64,000 nucleotides of DNA from Planctomycetota bacterium. Lineage in GTDB: Bacteria > Planctomycetota > B15-G4. Shown one piece after another: positions 16,808 through 35,829 of this stretch; the stretch's first letter is position 1; each line of letters begins with the position of its first letter. The stretch spans positions 3,929,375-3,993,374 of the forward strand of contig CBDFJQ010000002.1 of NCBI GenBank assembly GCA_965248575.1, in the 5' to 3' direction. The notes below the pieces were generated by a model. The model did no database searches and had not been told where the DNA came from. It worked only from the letters and a program-made list of their open reading frames with translations. Both the position numbers and the translations under genes were made by a program.

Positions 16808-17404
16808 ATGGATGAGACGACTCGTGAGGATCTGGGGCGGGGCTTGCTGCCTGCTTTGGTGGGTGCGGATGAGGTGGTGCGGCGGGTTCGTGCGGTCGGG
16901 GCGGGGAGCGTGATTGATGTGCGCTCTCCTGTGGAAGTGCTTGGGGAGTCGGTCCCGGGGGCGGTGGCGGTGCCGCTGGATCAACTGGAGGCGCGTCTGG
17001 ACGAGGTGCGGGCGGTGCCGGCGCCGCGGCTGTTGTTGTGTCGCTCGGGTGCTCGGGCTGGCAAGGCGATGGAGACCTTGACCGCGCTGGGAGTGGACGG
17101 GTTGAGCGTCATGAGTGGTGGGCTGGAGGCCTACCGGGCCGCGGGAGGCAGCACCGTGTCCGCCGGCTCGCACATGTCGCTCGAACGACAGGTGCGGGTG
17201 GCGGCCGGTTCCCTGAGTTTGCTCGGGGTGATCCTGGGTTTCTTGCTGCACCCGGGATTCTTCGGCTTGTCGGGCTTCGTGGGAGCGGGTCTGGTGTTCG
17301 CCGGGGTCACGGACTGGTGCGGGATGGGATTGCTCCTGGCGCGTGCGCCTTGGAATCAGCGCCCTGGGACGCGCGCTCAGCCGTCGGACACGCTGTCCCA
17401 GTAG
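16808..17404 (+). CDS. rhodanese-like domain protein with C-terminal YgaP-like (DUF2892) membrane segment
   Basis: Rhodanese-like core with active-site-like LLLCRSGARAGKA; C-terminal hydrophobic GVILGFLLHPGFFGLSGFVGAGLVFAGVTDWCGMGLLLA; ATG 16808 preferred. Confidence 0.7.
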   Translation: MDETTREDLGRGLLPALVGADEVVRRVRAVGAGSVIDVRSPVEVLGESVPGAVAVPLDQLEARLDEVRAVPAPRLLLCRSGARAGKAMETLTALGVDGLSVMSGGLEAYRAAGGSTVSAGSHMSLERQVRVAAGSLSLLGVILGFLLHPGFFGLSGFVGAGLVFAGVTDWCGMGLLLARAPWNQRPGTRAQPSDTLSQ

Positions 17405-18432
17405 GGGGCGAGGGCCTGACGTGCCTTGCCGACGGTGACGGTTGCGTCGATGGAGGGCGCGGCGTCCAAGCCGAAGTCGCGGCCTGGGACACCGGGTTCG
17501 GCGCCGCTGCTGGCGTGCAGGGCGGCGCGCACACCCTGCACCACACCTTGCGGGTCGTAGCCCCCTTCGAGGGTGCACACGAGGCGACCGGGGCAGTGCT
17601 CGTCCGACCAGCTGCGGAACAGTTGGAACAGGGCGTCGAAGCCAGAGCGGCTGACGGCCAAACCCCCGAGGGGGTCGGCGTGCCAGGTGTCGAAACCGGC
17701 CGAAACGAGGATCAGGTCGGGGCGGTAGTCGGAGACCACGGGGCCCACCACCTCTTGATAGAGGTGCAGGAGGTCGGCGTCGCCCATGCCCGCGCCCAGC
17801 GGTAGGTTTACGGTGTGGCCGGCGCCCTCGCCCGTGCCCACCTCGGTCAGCGGGCCGGTGAAGGGATAGAAGGGGTAGCGATGGCTGGAGACGTAGAGCA
17901 CGTCGCTGCGGCTGTCGAAGGCGTGTTGGGTGCCGTTGCCGTGGTGCACGTCGGGGTCGAGGATCAGCACCCGTTCGCAGCCCAGCTCGGCTCGGGCGTG
18001 TTCGGCGGCTACGGCCACGTTGTTGAAGAGGCAGAAGCCCATGGCGTGGGAGGCTTCGGCGTGGTGGCCGGGGGGGCGCACCAAGGCGAAGGCGCCGGCG
18101 GCCTCGCCTGCGACCACGGCTTCGGTGGCGGCGAGGGTCGCCCCCGCACCCTTCAGGGCAGCCTCCCAGGAGCCGGCGCTGGTGATGGTATCGCCGTCGA
18201 GGGCGACAGGGGCCTGACCCGCCGTGGCCTCGACCACATCCACATGCTGGGCGGTGTGCACCCGTTGCAGCTCGGCGCGAGTGGCTCGGCGCGGGCTGTC
18301 CTGGCGGGTGCCGGGCACGGGGCGCGCGTCCAGGTCGTCCAGCACCGCGGCCAGTCGGGCAGCGTTTTCCGGATGGCCGGGACCCGGGTCGTGCTCCAGG
18401 CAGCTCGGGTCTCGTAGGATCAGAGTGTCCAT
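17377..18432 (-). CDS. histone deacetylase-family (acetoin utilization/HDAC-like) protein
   Basis: MDTLILRDPSCLEHDPGPGHPENAARL..., FALVRPPGHHAE, ILDPDVHHGNGTQ, VSAGFDTWHADPLGG: canonical HDAC/arginase-fold motifs; start trimmed from track ORF 17377..19248. Confidence 0.85.
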   Translation of the reverse strand: MDTLILRDPSCLEHDPGPGHPENAARLAAVLDDLDARPVPGTRQDSPRRATRAELQRVHTAQHVDVVEATAGQAPVALDGDTITSAGSWEAALKGAGATLAATEAVVAGEAAGAFALVRPPGHHAEASHAMGFCLFNNVAVAAEHARAELGCERVLILDPDVHHGNGTQHAFDSRSDVLYVSSHRYPFYPFTGPLTEVGTGEGAGHTVNLPLGAGMGDADLLHLYQEVVGPVVSDYRPDLILVSAGFDTWHADPLGGLAVSRSGFDALFQLFRSWSDEHCPGRLVCTLEGGYDPQGVVQGVRAALHASSGAEPGVPGRDFGLDAAPSIDATVTVGKARQALAPYWDSVSDG

Positions 18433-18504
18433 GCAGCGAACGGTAGCGCTCGCCAGGGGCGGGCTCCAGTGGCGAGGCGGCGGTGACCCAGCGGTGATCG
18501 ATCG

Positions 18505-19725
18505 ATGAGCAGGGGACAGCGAAACGCGCTCATGGCCTTCGGCCTCGTGCTGGTCGCCTATGTGCTGGCCCGCGCCCTGTCTGGCGACAACGACTTCGAC
18601 GGCTTCCATCGCGCGGCGCAACACGTGCTCGACACCGGGACGCTCAGCCGGGTGAAGGACGTGCAGCGCTACCCGCCCAGCTTCCAATTGCTGATGCTGC
18701 CCTTCGGTCTGCTGCCATTGAAGGTGGCCGCGGGACTGTGGTTGGTGTTGAGCGTCGTGGCTCTGTGGAAGTTGCCGCGCCTGCTCGAACGCCTGATGGG
18801 TGTCCCGGTCTCCGCGCAGTTGGTGGCGGGCTGCGTGATGCTGCCGCTGGTGGTGGACAACCTGAACCTCGGGCAGAGCGCGCCGGTGTTGGTGTGCCTG
18901 TGCGCGTTGGCGCTGGTCTGGGCGCGGGAGGGGCGTGGACTCGCCAGCGGCTTCTTGTTGGGTGTACTCGCCCTGTTCAAGGTGTTGCCCGTCGTGATGT
19001 TGGCGATCCCGATCCTGTTGTGCGTGCGTGGCGGCAGTGGCGAGGCCGGCGACGAAGCTGCTCGGGGAACACAGGCAGCCCTGCGGCTCGTGGCGGGTGC
19101 GCTGCTCGCCCTGCTCCTGGCAACGGCTGGGCTCGTGGCCGTGGTGGGCTGGGAGGACACGCGCGACACGACGCAGCAATGGGTCACGAAGACCCGCGCT
19201 GAGCAGACGCCCTGGGCGCTGGTGGCCAACAACCGCAGCCTGCGTCACAACAACGAAGGGCTGGGCGTTGTACTCGCCCGGACCTACTGCGACATCAGCC
19301 CGGCGCAGGCGAAGGGCTCCGTGTCTCTGGCCAAGTGGCCACTGTCGGTGGCGTGGGGGATGTACGGCGCCCTCTTGGCGGGGCTCGTGGTGGCGGTGTG
19401 GCGAGGGCTGTTCGCGGTGCGGCGGCTCATGGCTTCAAGCGAGGCCGCAGCCCGTCACAGTGCGTGGGGCGGGCTGTTCGCGCTGGCGTGCTTGGGCACC
19501 CTGCTCATCTCACCCATCGTGTGGACGCATTACTTTCTCTGGGTGTTGCCGGCCGCCGTCTTCCTGCATGAGCGGCAACGCCTGGTGTTGTGGGGCGGTG
19601 TCGCCTTCGCCGTGTGTTTCGCCGTGACGCCCCTGCGCGGGCTGGGCGTGCACATCTATGCGACCTATGCGCTGTTCTGGGTGTTGGCGTTGGAGATCGT
19701 GCGCCGGGCGCGCGCGTCAGGCTAA
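18505..19725 (+). CDS. polytopic membrane protein, GT87/DUF2029-like glycosyltransferase candidate
   Basis: About 10 predicted TM helices with conserved-looking loop motifs; family call is from overall architecture and tentative. Confidence 0.5.
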   Translation: MSRGQRNALMAFGLVLVAYVLARALSGDNDFDGFHRAAQHVLDTGTLSRVKDVQRYPPSFQLLMLPFGLLPLKVAAGLWLVLSVVALWKLPRLLERLMGVPVSAQLVAGCVMLPLVVDNLNLGQSAPVLVCLCALALVWAREGRGLASGFLLGVLALFKVLPVVMLAIPILLCVRGGSGEAGDEAARGTQAALRLVAGALLALLLATAGLVAVVGWEDTRDTTQQWVTKTRAEQTPWALVANNRSLRHNNEGLGVVLARTYCDISPAQAKGSVSLAKWPLSVAWGMYGALLAGLVVAVWRGLFAVRRLMASSEAAARHSAWGGLFALACLGTLLISPIVWTHYFLWVLPAAVFLHERQRLVLWGGVAFAVCFAVTPLRGLGVHIYATYALFWVLALEIVRRARASG

Positions 19726-20243: not shown

Positions 20244-20717
20244 TCAACCGGCGCCGTTGAGGCGTGCCATGGCGGCGGGCACGTGTTCCTTGATGTCGGA
20301 CACCTTCTCGGCGTGTTCGATCTTGCCGTGGGCATCAATGATGTAGGTGATGCGGTCCGGGTACTTGGCGCCGTCGTCGGCGCAGGCGCCGTAGGCCACG
20401 CTCATGGCCTTGCTCGTGTCGCACAACAACGGGTAGTTGAAGTCGAACTTGTCGGCGAAGGCCTTGTTGTCGGCCACGCTGTCAAAAGAGACGCCGAAGA
20501 CGGCGGTCTTGTCGTTCAGTTCTGGGGTTCGATCACGGAACCCCTGGCCCTGGACGCGTCAGCCAGGGGTGTCGGCTTTGGGATAGAACCAGAGCAGCAC
20601 GCGCTGGCCGGAGAAGTCCTCCAGGTTGCGGGTGGCGCCGGTGTGGTCCTGGAGCTCGAAGGCGGGAGCGTCGTCGCCCACATTGAGCAGCTTGGGTTTC
20701 TTGCTGAAGAGGCCCAT
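20244..20717 (-). CDS. bcp: Bcp/PrxQ-type peroxiredoxin with in-frame TGA (candidate selenocysteine) at the peroxidatic-Cys position (codon at 20559..20561)
   Basis: Minus-strand ATG at 20717 preceded by GAGGAG RBS. Translation MGLFSKKPKLLNVGDDAPAFELQDHTGATRNLEDFSGQRVLLWFYPKADTPG-[TGA]-RVQGQGFRDRTPELNDKTAVFGVSFDSVADNKAFADKFDFNYPLLCD...DRITYIIDAHGKIEHAEKV aligns residue-for-residue with E. coli Bcp (FYPKAMTPGCTVQACGLRD ... GKIEHV), with TGA where the peroxidatic Cys codon sits. Frame continues through track ORF 20244..20477. Confidence 0.65.
20518..20558 (-). promoter_or_regulatory. candidate bacterial SECIS hairpin immediately 3' of the in-frame UGA
   Basis: mRNA reads UGA-CGCGUCCAGGGCCA-GGGGUUC-CGUGAUC-GAACCCC: 7-bp GC-rich stem, 7-nt loop containing GU, starting 14 nt after UGA. 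Seen by eye, not folded computationally. Confidence 0.4.
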
Positions 20718-23331: not shown

Positions 23332-23636
23332 GCGGCGCCGGGCGAGAGGCCGGTCATTCGGGCCTGTGCACGCACGGGGGTCGCCAGCTCGGCGTTGGCT
23401 CGTCCTCGACGATGCTCTGCATCGCCTGCGGCTCGCCGCCTTGATCTGACGGCCCCAGCACGCACCCAGGGCCGAAGCACCGGCCTCTTACCCGGCTCGG
23501 GTTGGGGTGAAACAGATCGAGGCTTGGGCCGTCGGTGGGGTTGGTTATGCGGGTCTGTCTAATTCGTCGGGGGATTCGGTTCATGGCGCGGCGTCGGGCG
23601 GCGGGGCGGGGGCAGCGGGCTCGGTCCCCTTGGTTG

Positions 23637-24692
23637 ATGGTGCGTTTGCGGGAGGAGCTGCTTGTGCGGAGCTACAGTCCGCGGACGGCACAGACCTATG
23701 AGCACTGGGTGCGGCGCTTCCTGCGGTTTCATGGGATGCGGTCGCCGAGGGGGATGGGGGGTGAGGAGGTGACGGGCTTCCTCTCACACCTGGCGACCGA
23801 GATGAAGGTGAGCGCGTCGACCCAGAACCAGGCGCTGGCGGCGCTGCTGTTCCTTTACGGGAAGGTGTTGCAGGAGGACCTGCCGTGGATGGCGGACGTG
23901 GTGCGGGCGCGGCGGCCCCGCTACCTGCCGGTGGTCATGACTCAGGGGGAGGTACGCGAGGTGCTGGGTGCCTTGGAGGGGGTGCCTGCCACGGTGGGTG
24001 CCTTGCTCTATGGGTCAGGCCTGCGCTTGCTGGAGGCCCTCACCCTGCGGGTGAAGGATGTCGACTTCGGCGCGCGTCAGCTGTTGGTGCGGCAGGGGAA
24101 GGGCAAGAAGGACCGCCGGGCCCTGCTGCCCACCTCGGTGGAAGGGGCCCTGAGGCACCAGCTCCGCCAGGCGCGCTACCAACATGAGCAGGACCTGAAG
24201 AACGACGCAGGATGGGTCGAGCTCCCCGCCGCCTTCGGGCGCAAGTCAACCCACGCCGGCCAGGACTGGCCCTGGCAATGGGTCTTCCCCGCCACACGGA
24301 TCTACACCTGCCAGGAGACGGGAGAACGAAGGCGCCATCACCTGCACGAGACAGTGGTGCAGAAGGCGGTGCGCGCTGCCGCGCGACGAGCGGGACTCTC
24401 GAAACGCATCACAAGCCACGCCTTCCGTCATTCCTTTGCAACCCACTTGCTGCAATCCGGAACCGACATCAGGACCATCCAGAAGCTGCTGGGCCACAAG
24501 AGCGTGCAGACCACGATGATCTACACCCACGTCCTGAACCGCGGACCCATGGGAGTGGTGAGCCCACTGGATCAGCTGGGCGAGGAGGTGCAGCTGGAGG
24601 GGGAGGGACGGAAGGGCGGTGCCGCCGATCCAACGGGTCCACGGGATCCACCAGCCGATGAGGCCGAGGAAGGACCTCCCGGTGCTGGATAA
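23637..24692 (+). CDS. intI: integron integrase IntI (tyrosine recombinase), co-directional with the cassette array
   Basis: N-terminal [30 protein letters not shown]...[21 protein letters not shown]; IntI-specific insertion region ...[29 protein letters not shown]...; catalytic box [39 protein letters not shown] and ...GVVSPLD tail. Start ATG 23637 chosen inside track ORF 23535..24692. Confidence 0.9.
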
Positions 24693-24897
24693 TGCTGAAC
24701 ACCGTCGCGTGATAGACGGACCTGCCTATCGGGGTTAGGGTCGATTCTCGATCTGGCGCCTCAGGCCAGAAAACCGGAACGGAAGAGGAGGAAGTCGCCA
24801 TTGACGGGGAGAGAGAACACGGGCTGTGGGTCGATGGCCGCGTGGGGGCTTCGTTCCGTCTTTGCGTGACAGCCACGCTGTCCAATTGGAGTTAGGC
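24693..24897 (+). other. attI-like region between intI stop and first cassette; crossover core GTTAGGC at 24891-24897, GTTAGGG repeat at 24734-24740
   Basis: Position between intI and first cassette; terminal GTTAGGC identical to the attC R' cores; upstream GTTAGGG may be an integrase-binding direct repeat (inference). Confidence 0.5.
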
Positions 24898-24903
24898 AGC
24901 CGA

Positions 24904-25230
24904 ATGGCGAAGAAGATCAGTCGACTATGGGCTGCGGTGGCCGTCACACTCGCAACTGCCTTGCTGTGCTGGTACGTGGTCATTCCAGCCATCTACGATC
25001 ATTACTTCGAATACGAGACGGCTCTGCATAGAGTTGATCACTTGGTAGGTTCAGGGCGTCAGTTCGCGGAGAACTCCGACTTGGTCAACTACCTGTGGCG
25101 CGAGATTCGCGACGACACCAAGAATGTACCCAACATGGGGTTCTTAACGCCCGAGACGCTCTTCGCACGCGGGCGTCACTACACTCTCATCATGCTTGAG
25201 GAAGCACTGGAGCGCCTCGGTGAGCCCTGA
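24904..25230 (+). CDS. integron cassette ORF 1: small membrane-anchored hypothetical protein
   Basis: ATG 6 nt after attI core; MAKKISRLWAAVAVTLATALLCWYVVIPAI hydrophobic N-terminus; followed by attC. Confidence 0.55.
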   Translation: MAKKISRLWAAVAVTLATALLCWYVVIPAIYDHYFEYETALHRVDHLVGSGRQFAENSDLVNYLWREIRDDTKNVPNMGFLTPETLFARGRHYTLIMLEEALERLGEP

Positions 25231-25235
25231 CGCTT

Positions 25236-25302
25236 GCCTAACTGGCGCTAGCAACGGACGGGGCGCTTCGCGCCCCGCCGCTGAACCGCAGGTACGTTAG
25301 CC
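25236..25302 (+). repeat. attC site 1 (GCCTAAC ... GTTAGCC)
   Basis: Imperfect palindrome bounded by inverse core and core. Confidence 0.7.
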
Positions 25303-25319
25303 AGATGGAGCGTTGAGTG

Positions 25320-25712
25320 ATGCGAACGGTCTTTGCTGTTCTGGCAGGTGTGCTGGTGCATTTTCTGGTGCTGTCTGTCGTCGTTTCGCAGACGGTGACA
25401 CTTCAAGTCGTCCAAGAAGGAGCTGCGCCACTACCCGACGAGAATCCTCTGGTGTCGTGGGTGATCCTTGCGTGCATGTTCGTCGTAGCGGCGCTAGTCG
25501 GCGGAACGGCCGCCGGAGCCGTTTCAAAAGGGCGTTTCGCTCTGGCCTCGTGCCTCGTCGGGGCATGGGGTGCCATGCTGCTGTTCGCCAACGGTCAGAG
25601 TGCTGCAGACCTAGCATTCACCGTAGTCCTTGCCGGTGCAGTACTCTGTGTTCCCGCCGCACTCCTTGGGGGCTACACGTGGAAGAGGTTCTGTGCCAAG
25701 CCAACTGGCTAA
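25320..25712 (+). CDS. integron cassette ORF 2: hypothetical membrane protein
   Basis: Hydrophobic 130-aa ORF; stop TAA lies inside attC inverse core. Confidence 0.55.
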   Translation: MRTVFAVLAGVLVHFLVLSVVVSQTVTLQVVQEGAAPLPDENPLVSWVILACMFVVAALVGGTAAGAVSKGRFALASCLVGAWGAMLLFANGQSAADLAFTVVLAGAVLCVPAALLGGYTWKRFCAKPTG

Positions 25713-25773
25713 CAAGCGCTTGCAGCGGACGGTCCGCTGCGCGGCCCGCCGCTGAACCGCCAGTCCGTTAGGC
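25707..25773 (+). repeat. attC site 2 (GGCTAAC ... GTTAGGC), type A with internal palindrome GCAGCGGAC-G-GTCCGCTGC
   Basis: ctaacaagcgcttgcagcggacggtccgctgcgcggcccgccgctgaaccgccagtccgttaggc. Confidence 0.8.
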
Positions 25774-25799
25774 AGCACCACACTCTTGGAGTTGGGCCG

Positions 25800-26129
25800 A
25801 TGGTCGAATTGCGCCGAATAGAGCCCCTACCTCTCGGGAAGCTGCAGGCCTTTATTTGGGCAGCTCTTGCGCTAGTGCGCGCCGTGCCGATGCTTTTCGC
25901 TACCGTGTTCGAGGGGCCAGGTTCCGAGTTGTGGGGCGAGTTCAGCATCACCTCCATTGTGGACATGACGGGATTCTATGGGCTATTGCTCAGTCCCGTG
26001 GTTGCAGGGTTCTGGGGGCTCATTAATGGCTGCATTATTGCGTTAGCATACAACTGGGCTGCTGGGCAGCTCGGTGGCGTTAAGATCACGATAGTGACGG
26101 CAAGCGAACGTGATGGGGCCAGCGCATGA
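25800..26129 (+). CDS. integron cassette ORF 3: hypothetical membrane protein
   Basis: 109-aa hydrophobic ORF between attC 2 and attC 3. Confidence 0.55.
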   Translation: MVELRRIEPLPLGKLQAFIWAALALVRAVPMLFATVFEGPGSELWGEFSITSIVDMTGFYGLLLSPVVAGFWGLINGCIIALAYNWAAGQLGGVKITIVTASERDGASA

Positions 26130-26135
26130 CGGTCT

Positions 26136-26202
26136 GCCTAACAAGCGCTTGCAGCGGACGGTCCGCTGCGCGGCCCGCCGCTGAACCGCCAGTCCGTTAG
26201 GT
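26136..26202 (+). repeat. attC site 3 (GCCTAAC ... GTTAGGT), type A
   Basis: Near-identical to attC 2. Confidence 0.8.
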
Positions 26203-26209
26203 GGACGTA

Positions 26210-26572
26210 ATGCCGGATGTGAGTGCTCAACCATCGATGATCGAGAAAGTGCGATGCGAAGTCGTGACCTACGATCTGACGTATGCGGAGAAACAGCTGA
26301 TTGCCAAGGGAGCACTCGCGCCAGTTCTGGAGCGTTTGCACAGTACTGCGAGTGACAGCGTAGGCGACTGCGCAAGGTGGAGTGGTATTGCGGCAGTCAT
26401 CGGTTTCGTGGTGCTCCTCGTTGGGCCAAGGAGCAACTCTGTGTGGATTTGGGCGGTTAGCAGTTTTGGGCATCTAGCCTTAGCCGTAGTTCTTGGCTAC
26501 ATGAGCACCCGCCAGCGTAGGGAGGAAAGGCACCTTGCGAATCTCCTCGATACATTGAGGGAGGCAGAGTGA
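26210..26572 (+). CDS. integron cassette ORF 4: hypothetical protein with C-terminal TM segment
   Basis: ATG 26210 (MPDVSAQPSMIEK...); cassette position. Confidence 0.5.
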   Translation: MPDVSAQPSMIEKVRCEVVTYDLTYAEKQLIAKGALAPVLERLHSTASDSVGDCARWSGIAAVIGFVVLLVGPRSNSVWIWAVSSFGHLALAVVLGYMSTRQRREERHLANLLDTLREAE

Positions 26573-26590
26573 AGGCGTCTCTGAGACACC

Positions 26591-26657
26591 ACCTAACAAG
26601 CGCTTGCAGCGGACGTTCCGCTGCGCGGACCGCCGCTGAACCACAGGTCCGTTAGAT
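26591..26657 (+). repeat. attC site 4 (ACCTAAC ... GTTAGAT), type A
   Basis: Same repeat family with point differences. Confidence 0.75.
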
Positions 26658-26747
26658 GGGCGGATCTACGCAGGAAGGTGCAACACACAGGGTCTCCAAG
26701 TGTTAGATGAACCAAACGGAGAGCAACCGAAGAAGCGGCGCACCGCA

Positions 26748-26885
26748 ATGGCTACGAGTGTTTCGATTGGGGCAGCTGTTGGGGCCGTGTTCGGCGTGGC
26801 GGTGAGCAACATTGGCCTCGGCATTGCTATTGGCGTTGCGGTGGGCGTGGCCATCGGCGCAAGTCGAGAGGCAGGTAGGAAGTGA
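26748..26885 (+). CDS. integron cassette ORF 5: small glycine-zipper membrane peptide
   Basis: MATSVSIGAAVGAVFGVAVSNIGLGIAIGVAVGVAIGASREAGRK; alternative GTG start at 26700. Confidence 0.45.
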   Translation: MATSVSIGAAVGAVFGVAVSNIGLGIAIGVAVGVAIGASREAGRK

Positions 26886-26890
26886 ATGCC

Positions 26891-26952
26891 ATCTAACAAG
26901 CCGCACCAGACGGACCGGGCTCCGCCCGGCTGCTGAACGCCAGTCGGCAAGG
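26891..26952 (+). repeat. attC site 5, type B with degenerate R' core (GGCAAGG in place of GTTAGGC)
   Basis: atctaacaagccgcaccagacggaccgggctccgcccggctgctgaacgccagtcggcaagg; R' core altered. Confidence 0.5.
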
Positions 26953-27003
26953 CGGCAACATTGGACCGACGCACCACACAGGAGAGAACTATTGGCCGAC
27001 AAT

Positions 27004-27423
27004 GTGAAGACCACAGCGGCGACGGTGATTCCGACCATGCGATACAACGATGCAGCGGCAGCCATCGCGTGGCTCTGCGAAGCGTTCGGATTCGAGAAAC
27101 ACCTGGTCGTTCCCGGTGAAGACGGCACAATCGCCCACGCACAGCTCGTCTTCGGGAATGGAATGGTAATGCTCGCCTCAGCGCGCGCGAGCGAGTTCGA
27201 CAACCTTCACAAGCTGCCGAGCGCCCTGGGCGACGCCGTATCTCAGAGCCCGTACATCATCGTCGACGACGCCGACAAACACTACGCACGAGCTGTTGCG
27301 GCGGGCGCAGAGATCGTGATTGAAATTAGGGACGAGGATTACGGGGGCCGAGGCTACTCTTGTCGCGATCCCGAAGGGCACGTTTGGAACTTCGGCTCCT
27401 ACGATCCCTGGGCCTCCGCCTAA
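27004..27423 (+). CDS. integron cassette ORF 6: VOC-family (glyoxalase/bleomycin-resistance fold) protein
   Basis: GTG start; (M)KTTAATVIPTMRYNDAAAAIAWLCEAFGFEKHLVVPGEDGTIAHAQLVFGNGMVM...DEDYGGRGYSCRDPEGHVWNFGSYDPW resembles PhnB/VOC proteins. Confidence 0.7.
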   Translation: MKTTAATVIPTMRYNDAAAAIAWLCEAFGFEKHLVVPGEDGTIAHAQLVFGNGMVMLASARASEFDNLHKLPSALGDAVSQSPYIIVDDADKHYARAVAAGAEIVIEIRDEDYGGRGYSCRDPEGHVWNFGSYDPWASA

Positions 27424-27484
27424 CAAGCGCTTGCAGCGGACGGTCCGCTGCGCGGCCCGTCGCTGAACCGCCAGTCCGTTGGGC
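27418..27484 (+). repeat. attC site 6 (GCCTAAC ... GTTGGGC), type A
   Basis: Stop TAA inside inverse core. Confidence 0.8.
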
Positions 27485-27514
27485 GGACGGAGTCACTGAC
27501 CGCGGGAGAGTGGA

Positions 27515-27757
27515 ATGGCCATGACCTGGACGATAGTGCTAGTTGTAGTGCATGTGGTTCTTGCTCTCGCGGCTATTCGCTACGCACGAAAGAAGTCTAC
27601 CTGGACGCGTGGCCCACAGTTCGCAGTCGTCTGTGCATTGGCAATTCCGATAGTTGGACCAATAATGACCCTTCTTTCAGCAGCCGCTTCGGGAAGCGGT
27701 GAATACGTAGACGAGAGTGTGCAATACGGCGTCGATCCACCGGACCTAGGTAGCTAG
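27515..27757 (+). CDS. integron cassette ORF 7: small membrane protein
   Basis: 80-aa ORF, two hydrophobic helices. Confidence 0.5.
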   Translation: MAMTWTIVLVVVHVVLALAAIRYARKKSTWTRGPQFAVVCALAIPIVGPIMTLLSAAASGSGEYVDESVQYGVDPPDLGS

Positions 27758-27798
27758 AATGGCGACTAGTTCAAGAGAGCCAAGGCGTTACGCCGCAC

Positions 27799-27862
27799 GC
27801 CCAACAAGCCTTTTCAGACGGACCGGGCTTCGCCCGGCCGCCGAACCGCAGGTCCGCTAGCT
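27799..27862 (+). repeat. attC site 7, type B (GCCCAAC ... GCTAGCT)
   Basis: cccaacaagccttttcagacggaccgggcttcgcccggccgccgaaccgcaggtccgctagct. Confidence 0.6.
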
Positions 27863-27875
27863 AGACGGAACAGTC

Positions 27876-28097
27876 ATGAGGGAGCAGGGCAAAGGACGAC
27901 GGATCAGGCATGTCCAGAACTGGGATCTCCATGTCTTCATGCTGCTCTTTGTCGTACCAGCTTTTGCTGGAGGCCTTTGGCTGGTCCATCCTCTTCTGGG
28001 CTTGGTTGTGGTCGCCATCTTCGTAGTCTGGGTTGTAGACAACGTGCACGAGTCCAATCGTCTCCAGGAGCGCGGCCGCCGTGAGCGCACTAGCTAA
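27876..28097 (+). CDS. integron cassette ORF 8: small membrane protein
   Basis: 73-aa ORF with hydrophobic helices; stop inside attC inverse core. Confidence 0.5.
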   Translation: MREQGKGRRIRHVQNWDLHVFMLLFVVPAFAGGLWLVHPLLGLVVVAIFVVWVVDNVHESNRLQERGRRERTS

Positions 28098-28158
28098 CAA
28101 GCGCTTGCAGCGGACGGTCCGCTGCGCGTCCCGCCGCTGACCCGCAGATACGTTAGCC
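28092..28158 (+). repeat. attC site 8 (AGCTAAC ... GTTAGCC), type A
   Basis: Same repeat family. Confidence 0.8.
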
Positions 28159-28160
28159 GG

Positions 28161-28514
28161 ATGGAGGCGATGCCGGTCACCAAGTTCCAAGAGGAATGGA
28201 ATGAGATCGCAGTGCGGTGGGGCCTCTACGTGAAGGCGCCGTTCGTGGTCAAACTCATTCACGGAGAAGTCACCGTCCCTGTGCTTCTTCGAGACTTCGG
28301 CGCCTCTCACGGGATGCTACTTGTTACGGACTATGGCCTGATCTCTCCCCACTGGGAGGAACTCGTGAGCCTTGGTTTTGGGTTCTCGTGCCTCAGTGAG
28401 CCTGACGGAGTGAGCCACCCCGACGACGACGAAGCCCTCATGGAGATGCTCTCAGACTGGGGATGGTCGGGAAGCGAGAACCCTCCCGAGTGGTATCGTG
28501 AACCCAGTAGCTAA
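28161..28514 (+). CDS. integron cassette ORF 9: hypothetical soluble protein
   Basis: 117-aa ORF starting 3 nt after attC 8; no recognised motif. Confidence 0.5.
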   Translation: MEAMPVTKFQEEWNEIAVRWGLYVKAPFVVKLIHGEVTVPVLLRDFGASHGMLLVTDYGLISPHWEELVSLGFGFSCLSEPDGVSHPDDDEALMEMLSDWGWSGSENPPEWYREPSS

Positions 28515-28572
28515 CCAGCCGTAGCAGACGGGCCGGGCTGGGCCCGGCCGCTGAACGGCAGGTCCGTTAGGC
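28509..28572 (+). repeat. attC site 9, type B (AGCTAAC ... GTTAGGC)
   Basis: agctaaccagccgtagcagacgggccgggctgggcccggccgctgaacggcaggtccgttaggc. Confidence 0.75.
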
Positions 28573-28591
28573 GCACGAAGGGGGAGTACTG

Positions 28592-29107
28592 ATGCCCGTT
28601 CGATTCGAATGCTCGAAATGCGGACAGGACATCTCGTCGTTCATGCGCGTTGGAGAGACTGCGGAATGTCCATCATGCGGCGCGCGAGTGCAGGTACCTG
28701 CTTCGGCGGAGCGCAGAGGACTTACCTATGAGCCGTCGCAAAGAGGGGGCTACCCAGCGCCGACGATCGCTGACGGGCCCCCGGCGGAGTCGATACCACA
28801 TGCTGAGGCTTTCACCGTGAGGCGGATCCAGGCACGGACGATTCTCCAACTATCTCTGATCGGCCACCTCTGCTTCTGCATTCCGGCTTTTCTGCTCGTG
28901 GGGCTTGGGGCAGCCCTCGGATTCGAGGGCTGGTCGGTAACGTGGAATGACGAACCCGTGACTGGAGTCATGGCCGTGCTTGTAGCTCTGCCTCTTGGCG
29001 TAGGCGCAGGGCTCGGATCCGGCCTCGCCAATGGAACCGTCGCCTGCATTGGCCTCTGGATCTACTCCAGGTTTCGGTGGGTGACGGTCCACTATGCGCG
29101 AGCGTAG
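28592..29107 (+). CDS. integron cassette ORF 10: zinc-ribbon plus transmembrane protein
   Basis: N-terminal CSKCGQ...CPSCGARV (Cx2C...Cx2C) followed by hydrophobic helices. Confidence 0.55.
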   Translation: MPVRFECSKCGQDISSFMRVGETAECPSCGARVQVPASAERRGLTYEPSQRGGYPAPTIADGPPAESIPHAEAFTVRRIQARTILQLSLIGHLCFCIPAFLLVGLGAALGFEGWSVTWNDEPVTGVMAVLVALPLGVGAGLGSGLANGTVACIGLWIYSRFRWVTVHYARA

Positions 29108-29113
29108 CATTGC

Positions 29114-29180
29114 GTCTAGCAAGCGCTTGCGGCGGACTGTCCGCTGCGCGTCCCGCCGCTGAATCGCAACGACGTTAGGC
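29114..29180 (+). repeat. attC site 10 (GTCTAGC ... GTTAGGC), type A variant
   Basis: Same repeat family. Confidence 0.7.
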
Positions 29181-29193
29181 AGAGCAACTGACG

Positions 29194-29613
29194 ATGATCG
29201 AATTCCAGCTGTTGCCCAGAACCTCGGACGGGACAGAAGAGCCACAGCTCTGGTTTCGGGTGCGGCTACGCGGTGAGTTCACAGGAGAGCTCGACCTGCA
29301 ATTGGAGACAGCTGAAGTTCTCTCGTTTGTTGAGCAGCTCGCAGGCTTTCCGAGGTCAACAGAGCAGGTTGAATCGGCAAGGCTCGTCGACCGGCACGCA
29401 GCCAGGTTTGCCGATTTCGAAGTTTCCTGCATCGATCGATCGGGGCATGTCCGCGTTGCAGCCAGCCTTGGGTCGGGTTCAGGGCAGTTTGGCGCTCCTG
29501 TCTGGGACACGGTCACAGCCAACGTCGCAGCCGTTGCGGCTGAGATCGACGTGTTTCAGAAGCAGCTTGTAGCGATCATCAAAGGGATTGAGTCCCATGC
29601 GCGCCTTGCCTAA
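29194..29613 (+). CDS. integron cassette ORF 11: hypothetical protein
   Basis: 139-aa ORF; no recognised motif. Confidence 0.5.
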   Translation: MIEFQLLPRTSDGTEEPQLWFRVRLRGEFTGELDLQLETAEVLSFVEQLAGFPRSTEQVESARLVDRHAARFADFEVSCIDRSGHVRVAASLGSGSGQFGAPVWDTVTANVAAVAAEIDVFQKQLVAIIKGIESHARLA

Positions 29614-29670
29614 CAAGTGCGTGCAGCGGACACCGCTCTGCGGCGCAGCTGACCCACTGAGTCGGTAGAT
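29608..29670 (+). repeat. attC site 11 (GCCTAAC ... GGTAGAT), divergent 3' half
   Basis: 5' half matches type A; 3' half diverged, adjoining a lower-GC cassette. Confidence 0.5.
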
Positions 29671-29686
29671 ATATGAACGGTGTTTA

Positions 29687-30199
29687 ATGAACGAAAAGCA
29701 ACCACGAATAATGCCATCCACTGAGTCCCAATCTCTACCAGGTAAGGGCAAGTCAGGCCGGTTCTGGCAAGGGTTCTGGCTTATATTCCTAGTGGTTTCA
29801 CTTGCCTACGCTTGGTACTCCTTCTATGCGCCTTCCAACCGCATCGCCTGGGCCGATAACTTCACGGCTGCGCAACAACAGGCAGTCAAGTCTGACAAAC
29901 CGATGATTCTCTTTTTCACTGGCAAGTGGTGTTCACCCTGCCAGATCATGAAACGTCAAGTCTGGGCGGATGAACAGGTGATGGCTGCGGTCAATGAGGC
30001 GTTCATCCCTGTGACGATTGACGTGGATGACCCTAATGCGGCCTCGGCATTGAGTCGGTACGGTGTTGGCCTAACGCCAACCACTATCATCACGGATTCA
30101 AAAGGGAATGTCTTGCAACGGAACCACGGGAGGATGAGCAAAACCGAATTCCTCGAATTGTTAGGTGAGATTGATCCATCGACCGTCGAAGATCTGTAA
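29687..30199 (+). CDS. integron cassette ORF 12: thioredoxin-fold protein (WCSPC active site), lower-GC cassette
   Basis: MILFFTGKWCSPCQIMKRQVWADEQV...: CxxC thioredoxin-like motif; N-terminal TM anchor; composition visibly AT-richer than flanks. Confidence 0.65.
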   Translation: MNEKQPRIMPSTESQSLPGKGKSGRFWQGFWLIFLVVSLAYAWYSFYAPSNRIAWADNFTAAQQQAVKSDKPMILFFTGKWCSPCQIMKRQVWADEQVMAAVNEAFIPVTIDVDDPNAASALSRYGVGLTPTTIITDSKGNVLQRNHGRMSKTEFLELLGEIDPSTVEDL

Positions 30200-30251
30200 T
30201 GCTAAGCGACTGCACCGTCTCTCTTCGGGCAATCATTGGTTTCGTTGGACT

Positions 30252-30312
30252 ATCTAACCATTCGTTGCACCAGACCGGCTTCGCCGACAGGTGAACGGCA
30301 AACCCGTTAGCC
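30252..30312 (+). repeat. attC site 12 (ATCTAAC ... GTTAGCC), distinct sequence type
   Basis: Bounded by canonical cores; internal sequence unlike types A/B. Confidence 0.6.
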
Positions 30313-30330
30313 AGATCAACTGAGGTTATC

Positions 30331-31116
30331 GTGGGCACTGCTCCCAGCAATCTCCGATGTCGAATAACGGATGCCGTGTGCAAAGCGTTACGGCCGTTGC
30401 CCCATGTGTTCGCCGGATGGGAGGGCGGGAGCGCTGCCTTCGATCTCGTGGATGAGTACTCCGACATAGACTTGAACTTCTTGTTGGATGACGCGGCCCT
30501 GGTCGATTCCCTTTATGCCGTTGTCGAGTCTGCACTCGAGACTGTGTCGCCGATTTCTACCACCCACTTTGAGCCCCCCGGCCGCTACTACAAATTGAGG
30601 GATGGTGGAGATTTCCTCCTGGTCGATGTGTGCATCTACCAGCCTGGGTCGCTCAGCGAGTGCCTCGACGTTGATCGTCACGGGAAAATTCGGCAGCTCT
30701 TCGACAAGGGGCAGTGGCTACGCAGCGAGACCTCAAGCGTGGTGTCCCAGCGAGCTACCCGAGCCAAGCGTCGGGACGATCTCGAAGAGTGGTTTTCCGT
30801 GAGTCAGAGTTTTGTCCGCAAGGCAATCATGCGCGGCCACGAGGTGGAGGCCTTGGCGGCGTTCTGGGGTTACACGCTCAAGCCACTCGTGGAAATTCTT
30901 CGCATGCGGTATTGCCCCGCACGATGGGACTTCGGCATGCGCTATCTGCAGAGAGATCTTCCAGGTCCTGTGTACGATGAGCTGCGGGGCATCATGTTTG
31001 TCGGAGAGTCTGTCGACCTAGCGGAAAAACTAGCGAAGGCGGTCGCATGGGGAGAGAGGCTACTGAGAGAATCTAAGCCGGGCAGTGAGATTGGACCTTC
31101 GCCAAGGGCTGGCTAA
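30331..31116 (+). CDS. integron cassette ORF 13: nucleotidyltransferase-fold protein
   Basis: GWEGGSAAFDLVDEYSDIDLNF fits the GS-x(n)-D-x-D minimal nucleotidyltransferase motif; substrate unknown. GTG start. Confidence 0.55.
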   Translation: MGTAPSNLRCRITDAVCKALRPLPHVFAGWEGGSAAFDLVDEYSDIDLNFLLDDAALVDSLYAVVESALETVSPISTTHFEPPGRYYKLRDGGDFLLVDVCIYQPGSLSECLDVDRHGKIRQLFDKGQWLRSETSSVVSQRATRAKRRDDLEEWFSVSQSFVRKAIMRGHEVEALAAFWGYTLKPLVEILRMRYCPARWDFGMRYLQRDLPGPVYDELRGIMFVGESVDLAEKLAKAVAWGERLLRESKPGSEIGPSPRAG

Positions 31117-31239
31117 CAAGGCGCTGCAGCTGACCGGCTCATGCGTCGGCGTTCCCAGGTTCTGGTAGTCTCTCGAACACGAAGGCGTTTCGAGGCCGGG
31201 GGCAAATCCCGCTGGCATCTGAGCGCCGGTCCGTTAGCT
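31111..31239 (+). repeat. attC site 13, long form (GGCTAAC ... GTTAGCT)
   Basis: About 129 bp between inverse core and core. Confidence 0.55.
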
Positions 31240-31255
31240 GGGCCAAGGAGCGACC

Positions 31256-31540
31256 GTGTCCAAACCAGCCAAGCTGTCGCTCGTGATGGCGGTGATCGCG
31301 ATGCTCCTGGCAGCTCCATTGTTGGGGGGGCACCAGTTGAGCGTGCATGGTGATCCATACACGTACATCTTCTTCCTCCCGAACATCGTTCCGCTGTTGG
31401 TACTTGAGTCGGCAGGCTATTTGCCAACAGATCACGAGTTGCTTGCGGCTGCCTCCAGTGTCGGGTTCTGGGTCATCACTGGAGCTGCGATTGGGTGGGT
31501 TTCAGTCTGGCGAACCCGAGGAGATCAAGATGCCACATAG
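31256..31540 (+). CDS. integron cassette ORF 14: small membrane protein
   Basis: GTG start; 94-aa hydrophobic ORF. Confidence 0.5.
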   Translation: MSKPAKLSLVMAVIAMLLAAPLLGGHQLSVHGDPYTYIFFLPNIVPLLVLESAGYLPTDHELLAAASSVGFWVITGAAIGWVSVWRTRGDQDAT

Positions 31541-31543
31541 CCA

Positions 31544-31605
31544 GCTACCAGCCGTAGCGGACGGACCGGGCTACGCCCGTCCGCTGAACGGCAGATACGT
31601 TAGCC
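31544..31605 (+). repeat. attC site 14, type B (AGCTACC ... GTTAGCC)
   Basis: agctaccagccgtagcggacggaccgggctacgcccgtccgctgaacggcagatacgttagcc. Confidence 0.7.
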
Positions 31606-31618
31606 GGATCAGGGAGGG

Positions 31619-32095
31619 GTGTTCGATATGTCTAGCCAAGATGTTGCCTCGTTCGTACTGAGGCTCTTGGGCGTCTTATTGCTCGTGACCTCGATTCCGA
31701 TTGCGATGGCCGTCATTGCTGACCAAGGGGGCCCCGGCTTGGGACCACTGACGGCGTCTGTCCTTGTTGGAGTGGCCCTCATTGTTTGGAGTCGGCCGCT
31801 CGGCAGTCGAATCGCTCCGAGCCCTGGCAAGCCCTCCGATGCGAAAGCATTGTCTGTCACGGACTGGCAGGCCATCGCCTTCTCGGCAATCGGCATCATG
31901 GTCATCGTGCGCAGCCTTGAGGCCTTCGCCGACAGTTACTTTCGATCCGAGGCGTTCGGAGCAGAGTTGTGGCCATGGCCCTTCACGGCGGTCCCCCTCT
32001 TGCAGTTGGTGGTTGGAGTCCTCCTGTTCTTCCAAGGGAGGGGTTTGGCCGCCTTCTGGCGCCGTTCGCAAGGAGACGGCGGTTCCAGCGGCTGA
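31619..32095 (+). CDS. integron cassette ORF 15: hypothetical membrane protein
   Basis: 158-aa ORF with 4 hydrophobic segments. Confidence 0.5.
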   Translation: MFDMSSQDVASFVLRLLGVLLLVTSIPIAMAVIADQGGPGLGPLTASVLVGVALIVWSRPLGSRIAPSPGKPSDAKALSVTDWQAIAFSAIGIMVIVRSLEAFADSYFRSEAFGAELWPWPFTAVPLLQLVVGVLLFFQGRGLAAFWRRSQGDGGSSG

Positions 32096-32156
32096 CACGC
32101 GCAAGCAACGGACGGTCCGCTGCGCGCCCCGCCGCTGAACCGCAGATGTGTTAGAC
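32091..32156 (+). repeat. attC site 15, type A variant (... GTTAGAC)
   Basis: gcaagcaacggacggtccgctgcgcgccccgccgctgaaccgcagatgtgttagac. Confidence 0.65.
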
Positions 32157-32178
32157 AGAGTTAGAGAGGAGGAACACG

Positions 32179-32673
32179 ATGGCTGACAGCAACGGCTCGT
32201 CCGTCCAGCGCGCTGCCCAAGCGAGGCGAGATCTCCTGCCTTCGTGGTTGAGGTCCATCTGCGTTCTCGTGGTTCCACTCTCGCTAGCAACCGTAGCGCT
32301 TCTCGCGACCGGCGTTCTCAAGCCCGACTCCTTCGACTTGAAGCTCCTCGGCATCGCCTACGGCGCGCTTTCACAGCCCGCCGCATTGGCCAGCCAGGTT
32401 TTCGTCATTGCGCTGGGTGTCTCCGCTGTTGGTTTGCTCCGCGGCGATGTGTGGGCTCTTGGTCTAGCGAGCTTCCTCAGCATTGTCGGCGTCGCCATGG
32501 CGCCGAGCGTCATCGAGTTCACTGAACCAGGATTCCATCTGAGGTTCGATGCACTGATCTTCGTTTCTCTCATCATTGCCCTGGAAAGGCGTCGAGCAGG
32601 ATGGAAGGCCGTCACAAGATCCAACCCTGTCAAACAAGAGCTTGCAGCGGATGCCGCTCCACCTAACCGCTGA
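32179..32673 (+). CDS. integron cassette ORF 16: hypothetical membrane protein; coding sequence reads through the 5' half of its attC
   Basis: 164-aa ORF; C-terminal ...VKQELAADAAPPNR is encoded by the attC-like sequence caaacaagagcttgcagcgg... Confidence 0.5.
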   Translation: MADSNGSSVQRAAQARRDLLPSWLRSICVLVVPLSLATVALLATGVLKPDSFDLKLLGIAYGALSQPAALASQVFVIALGVSAVGLLRGDVWALGLASFLSIVGVAMAPSVIEFTEPGFHLRFDALIFVSLIIALERRRAGWKAVTRSNPVKQELAADAAPPNR

Positions 32674-32691
32674 ACCACTGAGACGTTGGAC
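32629..32691 (+). repeat. attC site 16, short type A variant (GTCAAAC ... GTTGGAC)
   Basis: Same family, diverged. Confidence 0.55.
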
Positions 32692-32713
32692 GGAGCATTC
32701 AACCTTGGGTCCA

Positions 32714-32959
32714 ATGTCGCCAAGAGTCCTGATGTCAGGTTCCGCGATCGTCGTTGCGGACGTTGGATTTGGGATGGTCATCTGGGGGACCACGGCCTGT
32801 GCCATGAGGGACGAGAGGCTCGGCTGGTGGGGTAGGGTCATGGCCCCAGTCCTTCTTCTCCACGCATTCGGTTTCTGGGTGGTGATGCGAGCGGCCCCGT
32901 GGCTCAAGAGAGCTTCGGACGACAGAGATCAGTTTGCGGGAGGCTCCGGTGCGAGTTGA
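32714..32959 (+). CDS. integron cassette ORF 17: small membrane protein (shares a cassette with ORF 18)
   Basis: 81-aa hydrophobic ORF; no attC between it and the next ORF. Confidence 0.4.
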   Translation: MSPRVLMSGSAIVVADVGFGMVIWGTTACAMRDERLGWWGRVMAPVLLLHAFGFWVVMRAAPWLKRASDDRDQFAGGSGAS

Positions 32960-33536
32960 ATGTCTACTCTGGGACTTCGGGGACACGCTCTGCGACGAGC
33001 TCTCGCTCTGGCGCGCGACCCCCGAATGGATGGATGTCTACCGCTCGTTCGACGATGGGCTTGGCGCCGCTTGGAGCCTGGGCGAGCTCGACACTCCCGG
33101 CTTCGTGGCTGAGTTGGCCAAGCGCATGCCGCTTGCCGAAGCGGAGATCCTCGCGCACTTGAACCGCACCGATCTCTTCGAGTTCTTTCCGTTCACCTAT
33201 GCGTTCTTTCGCGACCGCCACCTTCCCCAGGCCATCGTGACCGTGAATCCCACCTTCTTCTCCGAGGTCGTTGTGCCCGGCTGCGCCTTGGACAACGTCA
33301 CGGACGCTATCGTCGTTTCGGGAGAAGAAGGGACGATTGACAAGGGTGAGCTCTGTCACCGAGCCCTTCAACGCATGGACTTCGACTCTGACCCTTCTCA
33401 CGCGTTGCTGATCGACAACAAGAAATCCAACCTCGACGCCTGGGCGAAGCGAGGCGGTGTCGGGTATTTGTATACGACCGATTCTGCGTTTCGACAGGAC
33501 GTTGCCCGCGGCATTGATCACCTCAGAGAGCGTTAG
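32949..33536 (+). CDS. integron cassette ORF 18: HAD-like hydrolase-fold protein
   Basis: GTG start; (M)RVECLLWDFGDTLCDE resembles HAD motif I; C-terminal LLIDNKKSNLDAWAKRGGVGYLY resembles motifs III/IV. Tentative. Confidence 0.5.
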   Translation: MRVECLLWDFGDTLCDELSLWRATPEWMDVYRSFDDGLGAAWSLGELDTPGFVAELAKRMPLAEAEILAHLNRTDLFEFFPFTYAFFRDRHLPQAIVTVNPTFFSEVVVPGCALDNVTDAIVVSGEEGTIDKGELCHRALQRMDFDSDPSHALLIDNKKSNLDAWAKRGGVGYLYTTDSAFRQDVARGIDHLRER

Positions 33537-33557
33537 GAATCCACGCGCTGGGTCGCC

Positions 33558-33692
33558 CTCTAACAAGCGGTTGCAGGTGACGACCAACAGTTCGCCTCAA
33601 TCGATCCGTGGTACGGTTCTGGCGGCGGGTGCTGCGCCCAAGCGTTCGCGGTCAACGCTGTTGGGCGCAGCTGAATCGCATGTCCGTTGGTC
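33558..33692 (+). repeat. attC site 18, long form (CTCTAAC ... GTTGGTC)
   Basis: About 135 bp, distinct internal sequence. Confidence 0.5.
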
Positions 33693-33719
33693 CGACCTCA
33701 ATCTGTTCTTTTCCGGTAG

Positions 33720-34274
33720 GTGCACGAGTTGAAACGGGTGGTAGTTCTTGACTACGACGCGGCCTGGGCCACGGTCTTCCAGGGGTTGCGTTTACCTGTG
33801 TGGAGTGCTCTTTCTGACATCGCGATCTCCGTGGAGCACGTTGGGAGCACAGCCGTCCCGGGCCTGGCAGCCAAGCCCGTGATTGACTTTGACGTGGTCG
33901 TCCCACAAAGCGAGCAAGCAGAGGCTATCGCGCGACTCTCTTCGCTTGGTTACGTGCACCGGGGTGACTTGGGAGTGCCGCAGCGGGAGGCGTTCCGTCC
34001 TCCGAAGGGTTCTCCGCATCACCATCTCTACCTCTGCCTGCCGACGAGTCCTGCACACGCCAACCACATCGCAATCCGTGACCATCTTCGCGCTCACCCT
34101 ACGGATGCAATGGCCTACGGGGACCTCAAGAGGCGTCTTGCTCAAGAGTTCCCCCACGACATGGACGGGTACATAGAGGGTAAGACCGGTTTCCTGGTCG
34201 CGATTCTTCGCAGGCTTGGCTTTGCGGAGGAAGCTTTGGGCAGCATCGAGCGAATGAACCACCGACCAGGCTAA
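33720..34274 (+). CDS. integron cassette ORF 19: GrpB-family (UPF0157) protein
   Basis: GTG start; ...ISVEHVGSTAVPGLAAKPVIDFDVVV... and overall length match the GrpB family. Confidence 0.7.
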   Translation: MHELKRVVVLDYDAAWATVFQGLRLPVWSALSDIAISVEHVGSTAVPGLAAKPVIDFDVVVPQSEQAEAIARLSSLGYVHRGDLGVPQREAFRPPKGSPHHHLYLCLPTSPAHANHIAIRDHLRAHPTDAMAYGDLKRRLAQEFPHDMDGYIEGKTGFLVAILRRLGFAEEALGSIERMNHRPG

Positions 34275-34411
34275 GCCGGTGAGCCAACACCCCCCTGGGG
34301 CAGACGGAGTCCTTGTCAAACCCGCTGCCCCAGCGCGATACTGTGCGTGAAGTGCGTGGAAGCAACCGGACGCGACAAGGCCTCCGTTGCTGAACCGCAT
34401 GTCCGTTAGGC
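34269..34411 (+). repeat. attC site 19, long form (GGCTAAG ... GTTAGGC)
   Basis: About 143 bp; canonical R' core. Confidence 0.5.
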
Positions 34412-34437
34412 GGTGATTCTGAGCGGCAAGGAGAAGC

Positions 34438-34824: not shown

Positions 34825-34885
34825 GATGCGCTTGCAGCGAATCGTCCGCTGTGCGCCCCACCGCTGAATCGCAGATACGTAAGCC
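34818..34885 (+). repeat. attC site 20, type A variant (GCCTGAG ... GTAAGCC)
   Basis: gcgcttgcagcgaatcgtccgctgtgcgccccaccgctgaatcgcagatacgtaagcc. Confidence 0.6.
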
Positions 34886-34899
34886 ACGGAGTAGGGCAA

Positions 34900-35262: not shown

Positions 35263-35291
35263 AGTCGCTGGCCCAACCGGACGAGGTATCT

Positions 35292-35819: not shown

Positions 35820-35829
35820 CGACCGGTTT

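Follow-up and report, generated by a model that had tools for sequence, protein, structure and literature searches.

A 64,000-nucleotide stretch of the genome of a Planctomycetota bacterium (GTDB lineage B15-G4; GenBank assembly GCA_965248575.1, contig CBDFJQ010000002.1, positions 3,929,375 to 3,993,374 of the forward strand), referred to here as the window and numbered from its first letter, carries on its minus strand a gene for a peroxiredoxin of the Bcp/PrxQ type. The reading frame of this gene contains an in-frame UGA codon, and a small hairpin lies just 3' of that codon in the mRNA, at 20544-20524. We read the hairpin as the bacterial selenocysteine insertion sequence (SECIS) element of a gene whose product would contain selenocysteine (Sec), and we put the probability of this reading at about 0.87. 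The gene and the parts of the element are as follows.

20717-20244, minus strand: Bcp/PrxQ-type peroxiredoxin gene of 157 codons, with its ATG at 20717-20715, its terminal TGA at 20246-20244 and the predicted Sec at codon 53.

20727-20722, minus strand: Shine-Dalgarno sequence GAGGAG, 4 nt 5' of the ATG and right after the stop codon of the upstream HAD-hydrolase gene.

20561-20559, minus strand: in-frame UGA, at the peroxidatic Cys position of P46-K-A-D-T50-P-G-U53 (PxxxTxxU).

20558-20545, minus strand: spacer CGCGUCCAGGGCCA, 14 nt from the UGA to the stem, which together with the 7-nt arm gives 21 nt from the UGA to the apical loop.

20544-20538, minus strand: 5' arm GGGGUUC, made of the last base of a Gln codon and GGG UUC (Gly-Phe).

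20537-20531, minus strand: apical loop CGUGAUC, made of the Arg-Asp codons CGU GAU and a C, with G-U at loop positions 2-3.

20530-20524, minus strand: 3' arm GAACCCC, made of the GA of the Arg codon CGA, then ACC and CC.

When translated with Cys at the internal stop, the gene product matched the Pfam family AhpC-TSA (PF00578; E=8.7e-31) over residues 13-135, a span that includes the UGA. The best NCBIfam match was the thioredoxin-dependent thiol peroxidase (104.9 bits, under the equivalog cut-off of 140), and the best match in the PDB was the Bcp structure 3drn. The UGA was aligned to the peroxidatic Cys of FYPKADTPGC, where the 19 closest full-length database proteins all have Cys. Past the UGA no stop interrupts the frame for 104 codons in the window and for about 103 codons in all close orthologues. 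The closest locus, L001, comes from a Planctomycetota metagenome-assembled genome and is 70% identical; differences between it and the window at codon positions 1, 2 and 3 number 21, 17 and 46, and the downstream 104 codons are 67% identical in protein. The open frame and the third-position bias of the differences indicate that the region past the UGA is translated and under purifying selection. Genetic-code reassignment of TGA was rejected, because TGA is an ordinary stop codon here and terminates 17 of the 33 predicted genes of the window, the peroxiredoxin gene included. Apart from the peroxiredoxin gene, the read-through TGA candidates in the window were only antisense-frame artefacts.

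An earlier note on this DNA, made from the sequence alone, had described a hairpin 14 nt past an in-frame UGA, with arms GGGGUUC and GAACCCC around a CGUGAUC loop containing G-U, and had called it compatible with a bacterial SECIS element. The description is exact, base for base, and the compatibility was borne out. The stem consists of seven Watson-Crick pairs without a bulge, closing a 7-nt loop, and is contained in the minimum-free-energy (MFE) folds of 41-, 62- and 121-nt contexts; alone it amounts to -10.5 kcal/mol, and with its context to between -12.9 and -19 kcal/mol. The published bacterial SECIS model (the bSECISearch consensus; PMC13188914) allows apical loops of 3-9 nt on an upper stem that is 4-16 bp long, asks for one G or more at loop positions 1 and 2, most often with a G or U as the next base, sets the loop 16-37 nt away from the UGA, and takes -7.5 kcal/mol as the upper limit of the MFE. 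The window element agrees with all of these constraints (7-nt loop, 7 bp, a loop that starts C-G-U, 21 nt and -10.5 kcal/mol), and its location agrees as well, with the stem beginning 14 nt past the UGA and lying inside the 157-codon open reading frame (ORF). The optional N1-N2 pair of the common SECIS loop pattern is unformed in the window (C and A).

Taken alone the hairpin is unexceptional, and its significance therefore rests on the comparison with orthologues. Scans of genome and metagenome contigs yielded a homologue set of 160 loci, cited here by their L numbers, with 164 matches to the active-site motif. The active-site codon is TGA in 108 of these matches and TGC or TGT in the other 56, and any stop codon at this position is always TGA. 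The TGA forms come from Planctomycetota, Acidobacteriota, Myxococcota and other phyla. Because the region downstream of the UGA aligns without gaps, pairs could be counted by position. At least six contiguous pairs, in either of the two registers described below, were present in 90 of 101 distinct TGA forms versus 2 of 51 distinct Cys forms (Fisher p=1.6e-26, with the kinship of the sequences ignored). The MFE of positions +1 to +45 was -15.0 kcal/mol in Sec forms versus -8.7 kcal/mol in Cys forms, and -15.3 versus -12.7 kcal/mol when the two were matched for G+C (p=0.007).

The same contrast is seen among loci that share gene neighbors. In the window the gene is flanked by the HAD hydrolase upstream and by a PnbB-like protein downstream; L001 and several other loci share with the window the downstream PnbB-like gene and an upstream 616-aa gene, and these are positional orthologues. 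Neighbor-sharing TGA forms (the window, L001, L004 and L008) form 6 or 7 of the 7 pairs and have a CGUGAYC loop. Neighbor-sharing TGC forms (L005, L082, L083 and L084, the last two of which share only the PnbB-like neighbor with the window) have 2 to 5 scattered pairs and other loops.

Two Cys forms, L121 and L124, still fold into a SECIS-register hairpin of 6 bp or more. Such hairpins may be remnant SECIS elements left after conversion of Sec to Cys, as described for other families (PMC1794560). Some loci carry tandem Bcp paralogues: both copies in L104 (2558-2700 and 3102-3250) have TGA and a hairpin in the window's register, L107 has one Sec and one Cys copy, and both copies in L006 have Cys.

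Hairpins in the window's register, which we call class A, pair positions +15 to +21 with +29 to +35 around a CGUGAUC loop that is nearly invariant in sequence. In an alignment of 26 class-A sequences the six core pairs are formed in 26 of 26, a figure that is partly circular, since the set was chosen for pairing in this register; the independent evidence is the covariation, the codon bias and the contrast between Sec and Cys forms. Core pair 21-35 shows compensatory change (AU in 11 sequences, GC in 7, GU in 7 and CG in 1), as does core pair 22-34 (UA in 21, CG in 4 and UG in 1), and the flanking pair 18-38 covaries in the 15 of 26 sequences where it is formed (CG 7, GC 5, UA 3). Sliding the partners by one column reduced pairing from 74% to 40-53%, and the RNAalifold consensus for class A is the SECIS hairpin and nothing else. 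A lower stem (columns 10-13 with 43-46; CAG/CUG in the window, CAAG/CUUG in L001) was considered and rejected, being only 50% paired and inconsistent in register. The earlier note had named conservation in orthologous Sec-Prx genes as a check, and the result favored it: the hairpin is kept in TGA forms with compensatory changes and is gone from Cys forms.

Codon usage also carries a signature of the element. The arms and loop use codons that are minor in the genes of the window: GGG accounts for 21.5% of Gly codons, CGT for 11.7% and CGA for 7.9% of Arg codons, and GAT for 19.3% of Asp codons. At the arm-forming Arg codon, 28 of 36 Sec forms have CGA or AGA, versus 3 of 18 Cys forms.

A covariance model, R1, was built from 23 class-A orthologous elements with the window excluded. 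Its single significant match in the 64-kb window was at 20514-20561 on the minus strand (E=1.3e-10; the next match had E=0.35), with a score of 42.1 bits compared with 36.4 bits for a sequence-only counterpart on the same element, so that the score is mostly coding-sequence homology and structure contributes about 6 bits. When run on L001-L100, R1 gave 54-70 bits for the class-A (training) elements and 19-37 bits for those of the second register, class B; two Cys forms were matched weakly, and no syntenic Cys orthologue was matched.

Class-B hairpins have the stem GGUUGCGG/CCGCGACC and a GUU loop that starts 17 nt past the UGA, about 5 nt nearer the UGA than in class A, whose loop presents G-U 22 nt past the UGA. 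Class A is found in the window, in all Planctomycetota loci and in some others, and class B in Acidobacteriota, Myxococcota and other phyla (loci within L009-L160), with examples in L010 (3157-3192), L014 and L029. The two classes, whose pairings exclude each other, have the same UGA position and an invariant GGGUUCCG core encoding G-F-R, within which GGGUUC serves as the 5' arm in class A and as the loop apex in class B; class B has the codons CGC GAC where class A has CGU GAU. Three loci (L034, L036 and L105) are able to form either register.

The mRNA of the window can also form a second hairpin, which begins upstream of the UGA and competes with the SECIS stem.

20570-20540, minus strand: competing hairpin with arms ACCCCUGGCU (20570-20561, the last base being the U of the UGA) and GGCCAGGGGU (20549-20540), which shares GGGGU with the SECIS 5' arm.

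Its perfect 10-bp version exists in the window only. Across the homologues its pairing is no rarer in Cys forms (7.0 of 10 positions) than in Sec forms (7.1 of 10), which argues that the competing hairpin comes along with the codons used for T-P-G and G-x-G; for the same reason it was rejected as the structure under selection.

Several observations weigh against the SECIS assignment, in addition to the partial circularity of the class-A set and the small structural share of the R1 score. The folding check proposed in the earlier note gave a divided answer: the stem is indeed in the MFE fold, but its stability is no better than that of dinucleotide shuffles, with weak z-scores of -0.45, -0.94 and -1.32 in the 41-, 62- and 121-nt contexts. 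The window has a G+C content of 65%, and when the hairpins downstream of all its 1604 TGA trinucleotides were scored as a chance baseline, 10% were followed by a SECIS-model-compliant hairpin at -7.5 kcal/mol or lower, 3.3% by a hairpin at -10.5 kcal/mol or lower and 1.2% by at least 7 perfect pairs. By itself the hairpin is barely beyond chance, and single-sequence folding cannot separate it from background; given the weak z-scores and the high base rate at random TGAs, we dropped single-sequence thermodynamics as support. These figures favor an alternative in which, the genome being rich in G+C, the codons of the conserved peptide G-F-R-D-R-T-P happen to yield a hairpin that does nothing at the RNA level, and it also counts for this alternative that the GFRD peptide is conserved in Cys forms too. 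However, the Cys forms that have the same peptide seldom pair, in the proportions given above, the hairpin needs minor codons, among which CGA/AGA is specific to Sec forms, compensatory double changes preserve the pairing, and syntenic Cys orthologues lack the hairpin; we give an accidental origin a very slender chance. A further point against the SECIS assignment is that the stem has a probability of about 0.15 in the free 123-nt mRNA, where the stronger upstream hairpin (-19.1 versus -10.5 kcal/mol) takes its 5' arm; the upstream hairpin is also the centroid of the 121-nt fold. The relevant structure around the UGA could on these grounds be the upstream hairpin, with the SECIS stem a minor conformer, although the upstream hairpin could act as a mask and so would not fully exclude a SECIS. 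This is highly unlikely in view of the restriction of the perfect form to the window and the lack of selection of the pairing with Sec. Moreover, with the UGA in the A site the 5' arm of the upstream hairpin lies inside the assumed ribosome footprint (-15 to +11 around the UGA), and when that interval was forced single-stranded the SECIS stem probability rose to about 1.0.

The remaining points against the SECIS assignment concern the decoding machinery and the gene itself. A tRNA scan of the 64-kb window found no tRNA gene and hence no tRNA-Sec, selA, selB and selD were not found among the roughly 30 scanned genes of the window, and no tRNA-Sec was found in the 3-kb flanks of 60 orthologous loci. 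Rfam (release 15) gave no match at the gathering threshold in the window and no SECIS match at E values up to 10 in 20400-20700. In addition, the window has U-R-V-Q (codons 54-56 at 20552-20558, minus strand) where homologues have U/C-T-x-E/Q; the Thr after Sec/Cys is at least 90% conserved, and among the 160 loci only the metagenomic L157 (U-R-V-E) shares the Arg. The Arg is an anomaly, but it does not replace a defining catalytic residue. It could mean that this gene copy is relaxed or decaying, though L157 also has Arg. Other possible causes of U-R-V-Q are a tolerated substitution and, as speculation without support, a compensated frameshift at TGA-ACG-...; U-R-V recurs in L157. The absence of Sec machinery from the window and the unusual Arg, together with the single base change that separates TGC from TGA, would fit a UGA that is a true stop, in a pseudogene, a truncated gene or an assembly error, with a hairpin unrelated to recoding. 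Against this stand the same TGA with an intact downstream frame in 108 independent homologues, the protein identity and third-position-biased substitutions downstream, and the co-occurrence of TGA and hairpin across phyla. Nor is the hairpin a terminator: an intrinsic (Rho-independent) terminator was rejected because no U-run lies directly 3' of the stem (AGAACUGAACG follows), and the terminator scan reports none at the hairpin. A true stop is as improbable, in our judgment, as an accidental hairpin. The missing Sec machinery in the window could also be taken to suggest that the hairpin promotes SelB-independent read-through of the UGA, for example by a near-cognate Cys or Trp tRNA, instead of Sec insertion, and downstream structures do promote stop-codon read-through in other systems. 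Yet the recoded position is the catalytic Cys, the interchange of Sec and Cys across homologues is a hallmark of selenoproteins in a family that is catalogued as such, the loop has the G-U demanded by the bacterial SECIS model, and TGA otherwise acts as a normal stop in the window; we consider SelB-independent read-through the least probable of these alternatives. What directly supports the SECIS assignment is that the hairpin exists and fits the model, that TGA forms conserve it with covariation, that Cys forms lack it and that purifying selection acts past the UGA, and we make the call because of this comparative evidence from orthologues and not because of single-sequence stability.

If the hairpin is a SECIS element, its action can be sketched on the E. 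coli paradigm. A ribosome nearing the UGA at codon 53 would unwind the upstream and spacer sequence, the competing hairpin included, and would thereby unmask the 7-bp stem, which with its CGUGAUC loop would then stand 14 nt 3' of the UGA. SelB with GTP and Sec-tRNA(Sec) would bind the apical loop through the exposed G-U and, competing with release factor 2, would bring Sec into the A site. The predicted product is the full-length 157-residue enzyme, with Sec replacing the peroxidatic Cys. We infer SelB binding, Sec insertion and the Sec-decoding trait of the organism from the family to which the gene belongs. A more tentative proposal, which we think possible but rather doubtful, is that the SECIS slid by about 5 nt along the constrained coding sequence, presumably co-evolving with lineage-specific SelB geometry, and that in the window the masking of its 5' arm by an upstream hairpin that only a translating ribosome opens would make it a translation-dependent SECIS.

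The only match of the terminator scan lies within the peroxiredoxin ORF at 20505-20492 on the minus strand, 54 nt past the UGA, and consists of CGCCG-UCUU-CGGCG followed by UCUCUUUUGA. It includes the rare codons TCT and TTT, its hairpin is unconserved among orthologues, and one such site was found versus 0.3 expected from shuffles. The site is probably due to chance, although polarity when the UGA is read as a stop is possible in principle.

Two other regions of the window deserve mention. After a tyrosine recombinase of the phage-integrase family (23535-24692, plus strand) come about 11 kb in which G+C falls to 0.58-0.62, versus 0.66-0.69 around them, with short ORFs only and almost no family matches; one of these ORFs, at 29687-30196, has a thioredoxin domain. 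At 36459-38231 there is a tail-fibre-like protein that carries a Peptidase_S74 chaperone domain. The region 23535-38231 probably represents a mobile element that integrated here or what is left of a prophage; the 64-kb window contains no tRNA attachment site for it. Nearer the peroxiredoxin gene, a histone-deacetylase-family gene lies within 17377-19725 on the minus strand, where a 623-aa ORF has the domain at residues 292-578, and a GT87-family glycosyltransferase ORF (18505-19725, plus strand) overlaps it on the opposite strand. The deacetylase ORF has a long N-terminal extension that is probably spurious, with the actual start codon likely further downstream.

Gene callers would split the peroxiredoxin gene into fragments of 52 and about 77 codons or label it a pseudogene. 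Recognition of the UGA/SECIS pair would restore a full-length antioxidant enzyme and mark the organism as a probable user of selenocysteine. The comparative set of 101 distinct TGA forms and 51 Cys forms in two registers amounts to a clean natural experiment, showing how synonymous and compensatory codon choice embeds an RNA signal in a coding sequence that is itself conserved. Knowledge of Sec decoding itself is unchanged by the finding.

In the experimentally characterized paradigm, the SECIS of E. coli fdhF, the loop is GGUC (4 nt), the upper stem carries a bulged U, the lower stem takes in the UGA, and the minimal stem-loop lies 11 nt away from the UGA (work of Böck and Engelberg-Kulka). 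The window element and those of fdhF and fdnG have in common an in-ORF stem-loop just past the UGA with G-U in its loop, which SelB recognizes in E. coli, and in both cases the upper stem-loop is placed just 3' of the ribosome that decodes the UGA. The window element differs from that of fdhF in its 7-nt loop, its bulge-free 7-bp stem, its 14-nt spacer and the lack of a conserved lower stem, and its G-U lies 22 nt past the UGA, as against 19 nt in fdhF.

Closer comparisons are found among the peroxiredoxins. PrxU of Eubacterium acidaminophilum is an experimentally shown Sec-peroxiredoxin (Söhling et al. 2001, cited in PMC13188914 and PMC9312934) and, as predicted for the window protein, has Sec at the peroxidatic position; the NCBIfam PrxU model gave the window protein 27 bits versus a cut-off of 270, and the window protein falls in the Bcp/PrxQ subfamily. 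Among bacterial selenoproteins, Sec-containing Prx (COG1225/Bcp, TxxU) forms an established family, whose genes were catalogued from bacterial genomes and marine metagenomes by Zhang, Gladyshev and co-workers (PMC1088965, PMC1794560, PMC9312934). The family has been known since the early 2000s, and the window gene is an ordinary further member. Like the known genes it belongs to the AhpC/TSA Bcp-type family and would have Sec at the peroxidatic PxxxTxxU position, and it likewise has an in-ORF hairpin right behind the UGA, whose small apical loop carries a G near its 5' side. Nothing essential differs: the window copy comes from a high-G+C genome, its nearest relatives are Planctomycetota metagenome-assembled genomes, Arg stands in place of Thr after the Sec, and the SECIS has a strong competitor in the hairpin upstream. 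This competing hairpin, together with the two registers that share one invariant core within the family, is what is modestly novel here.

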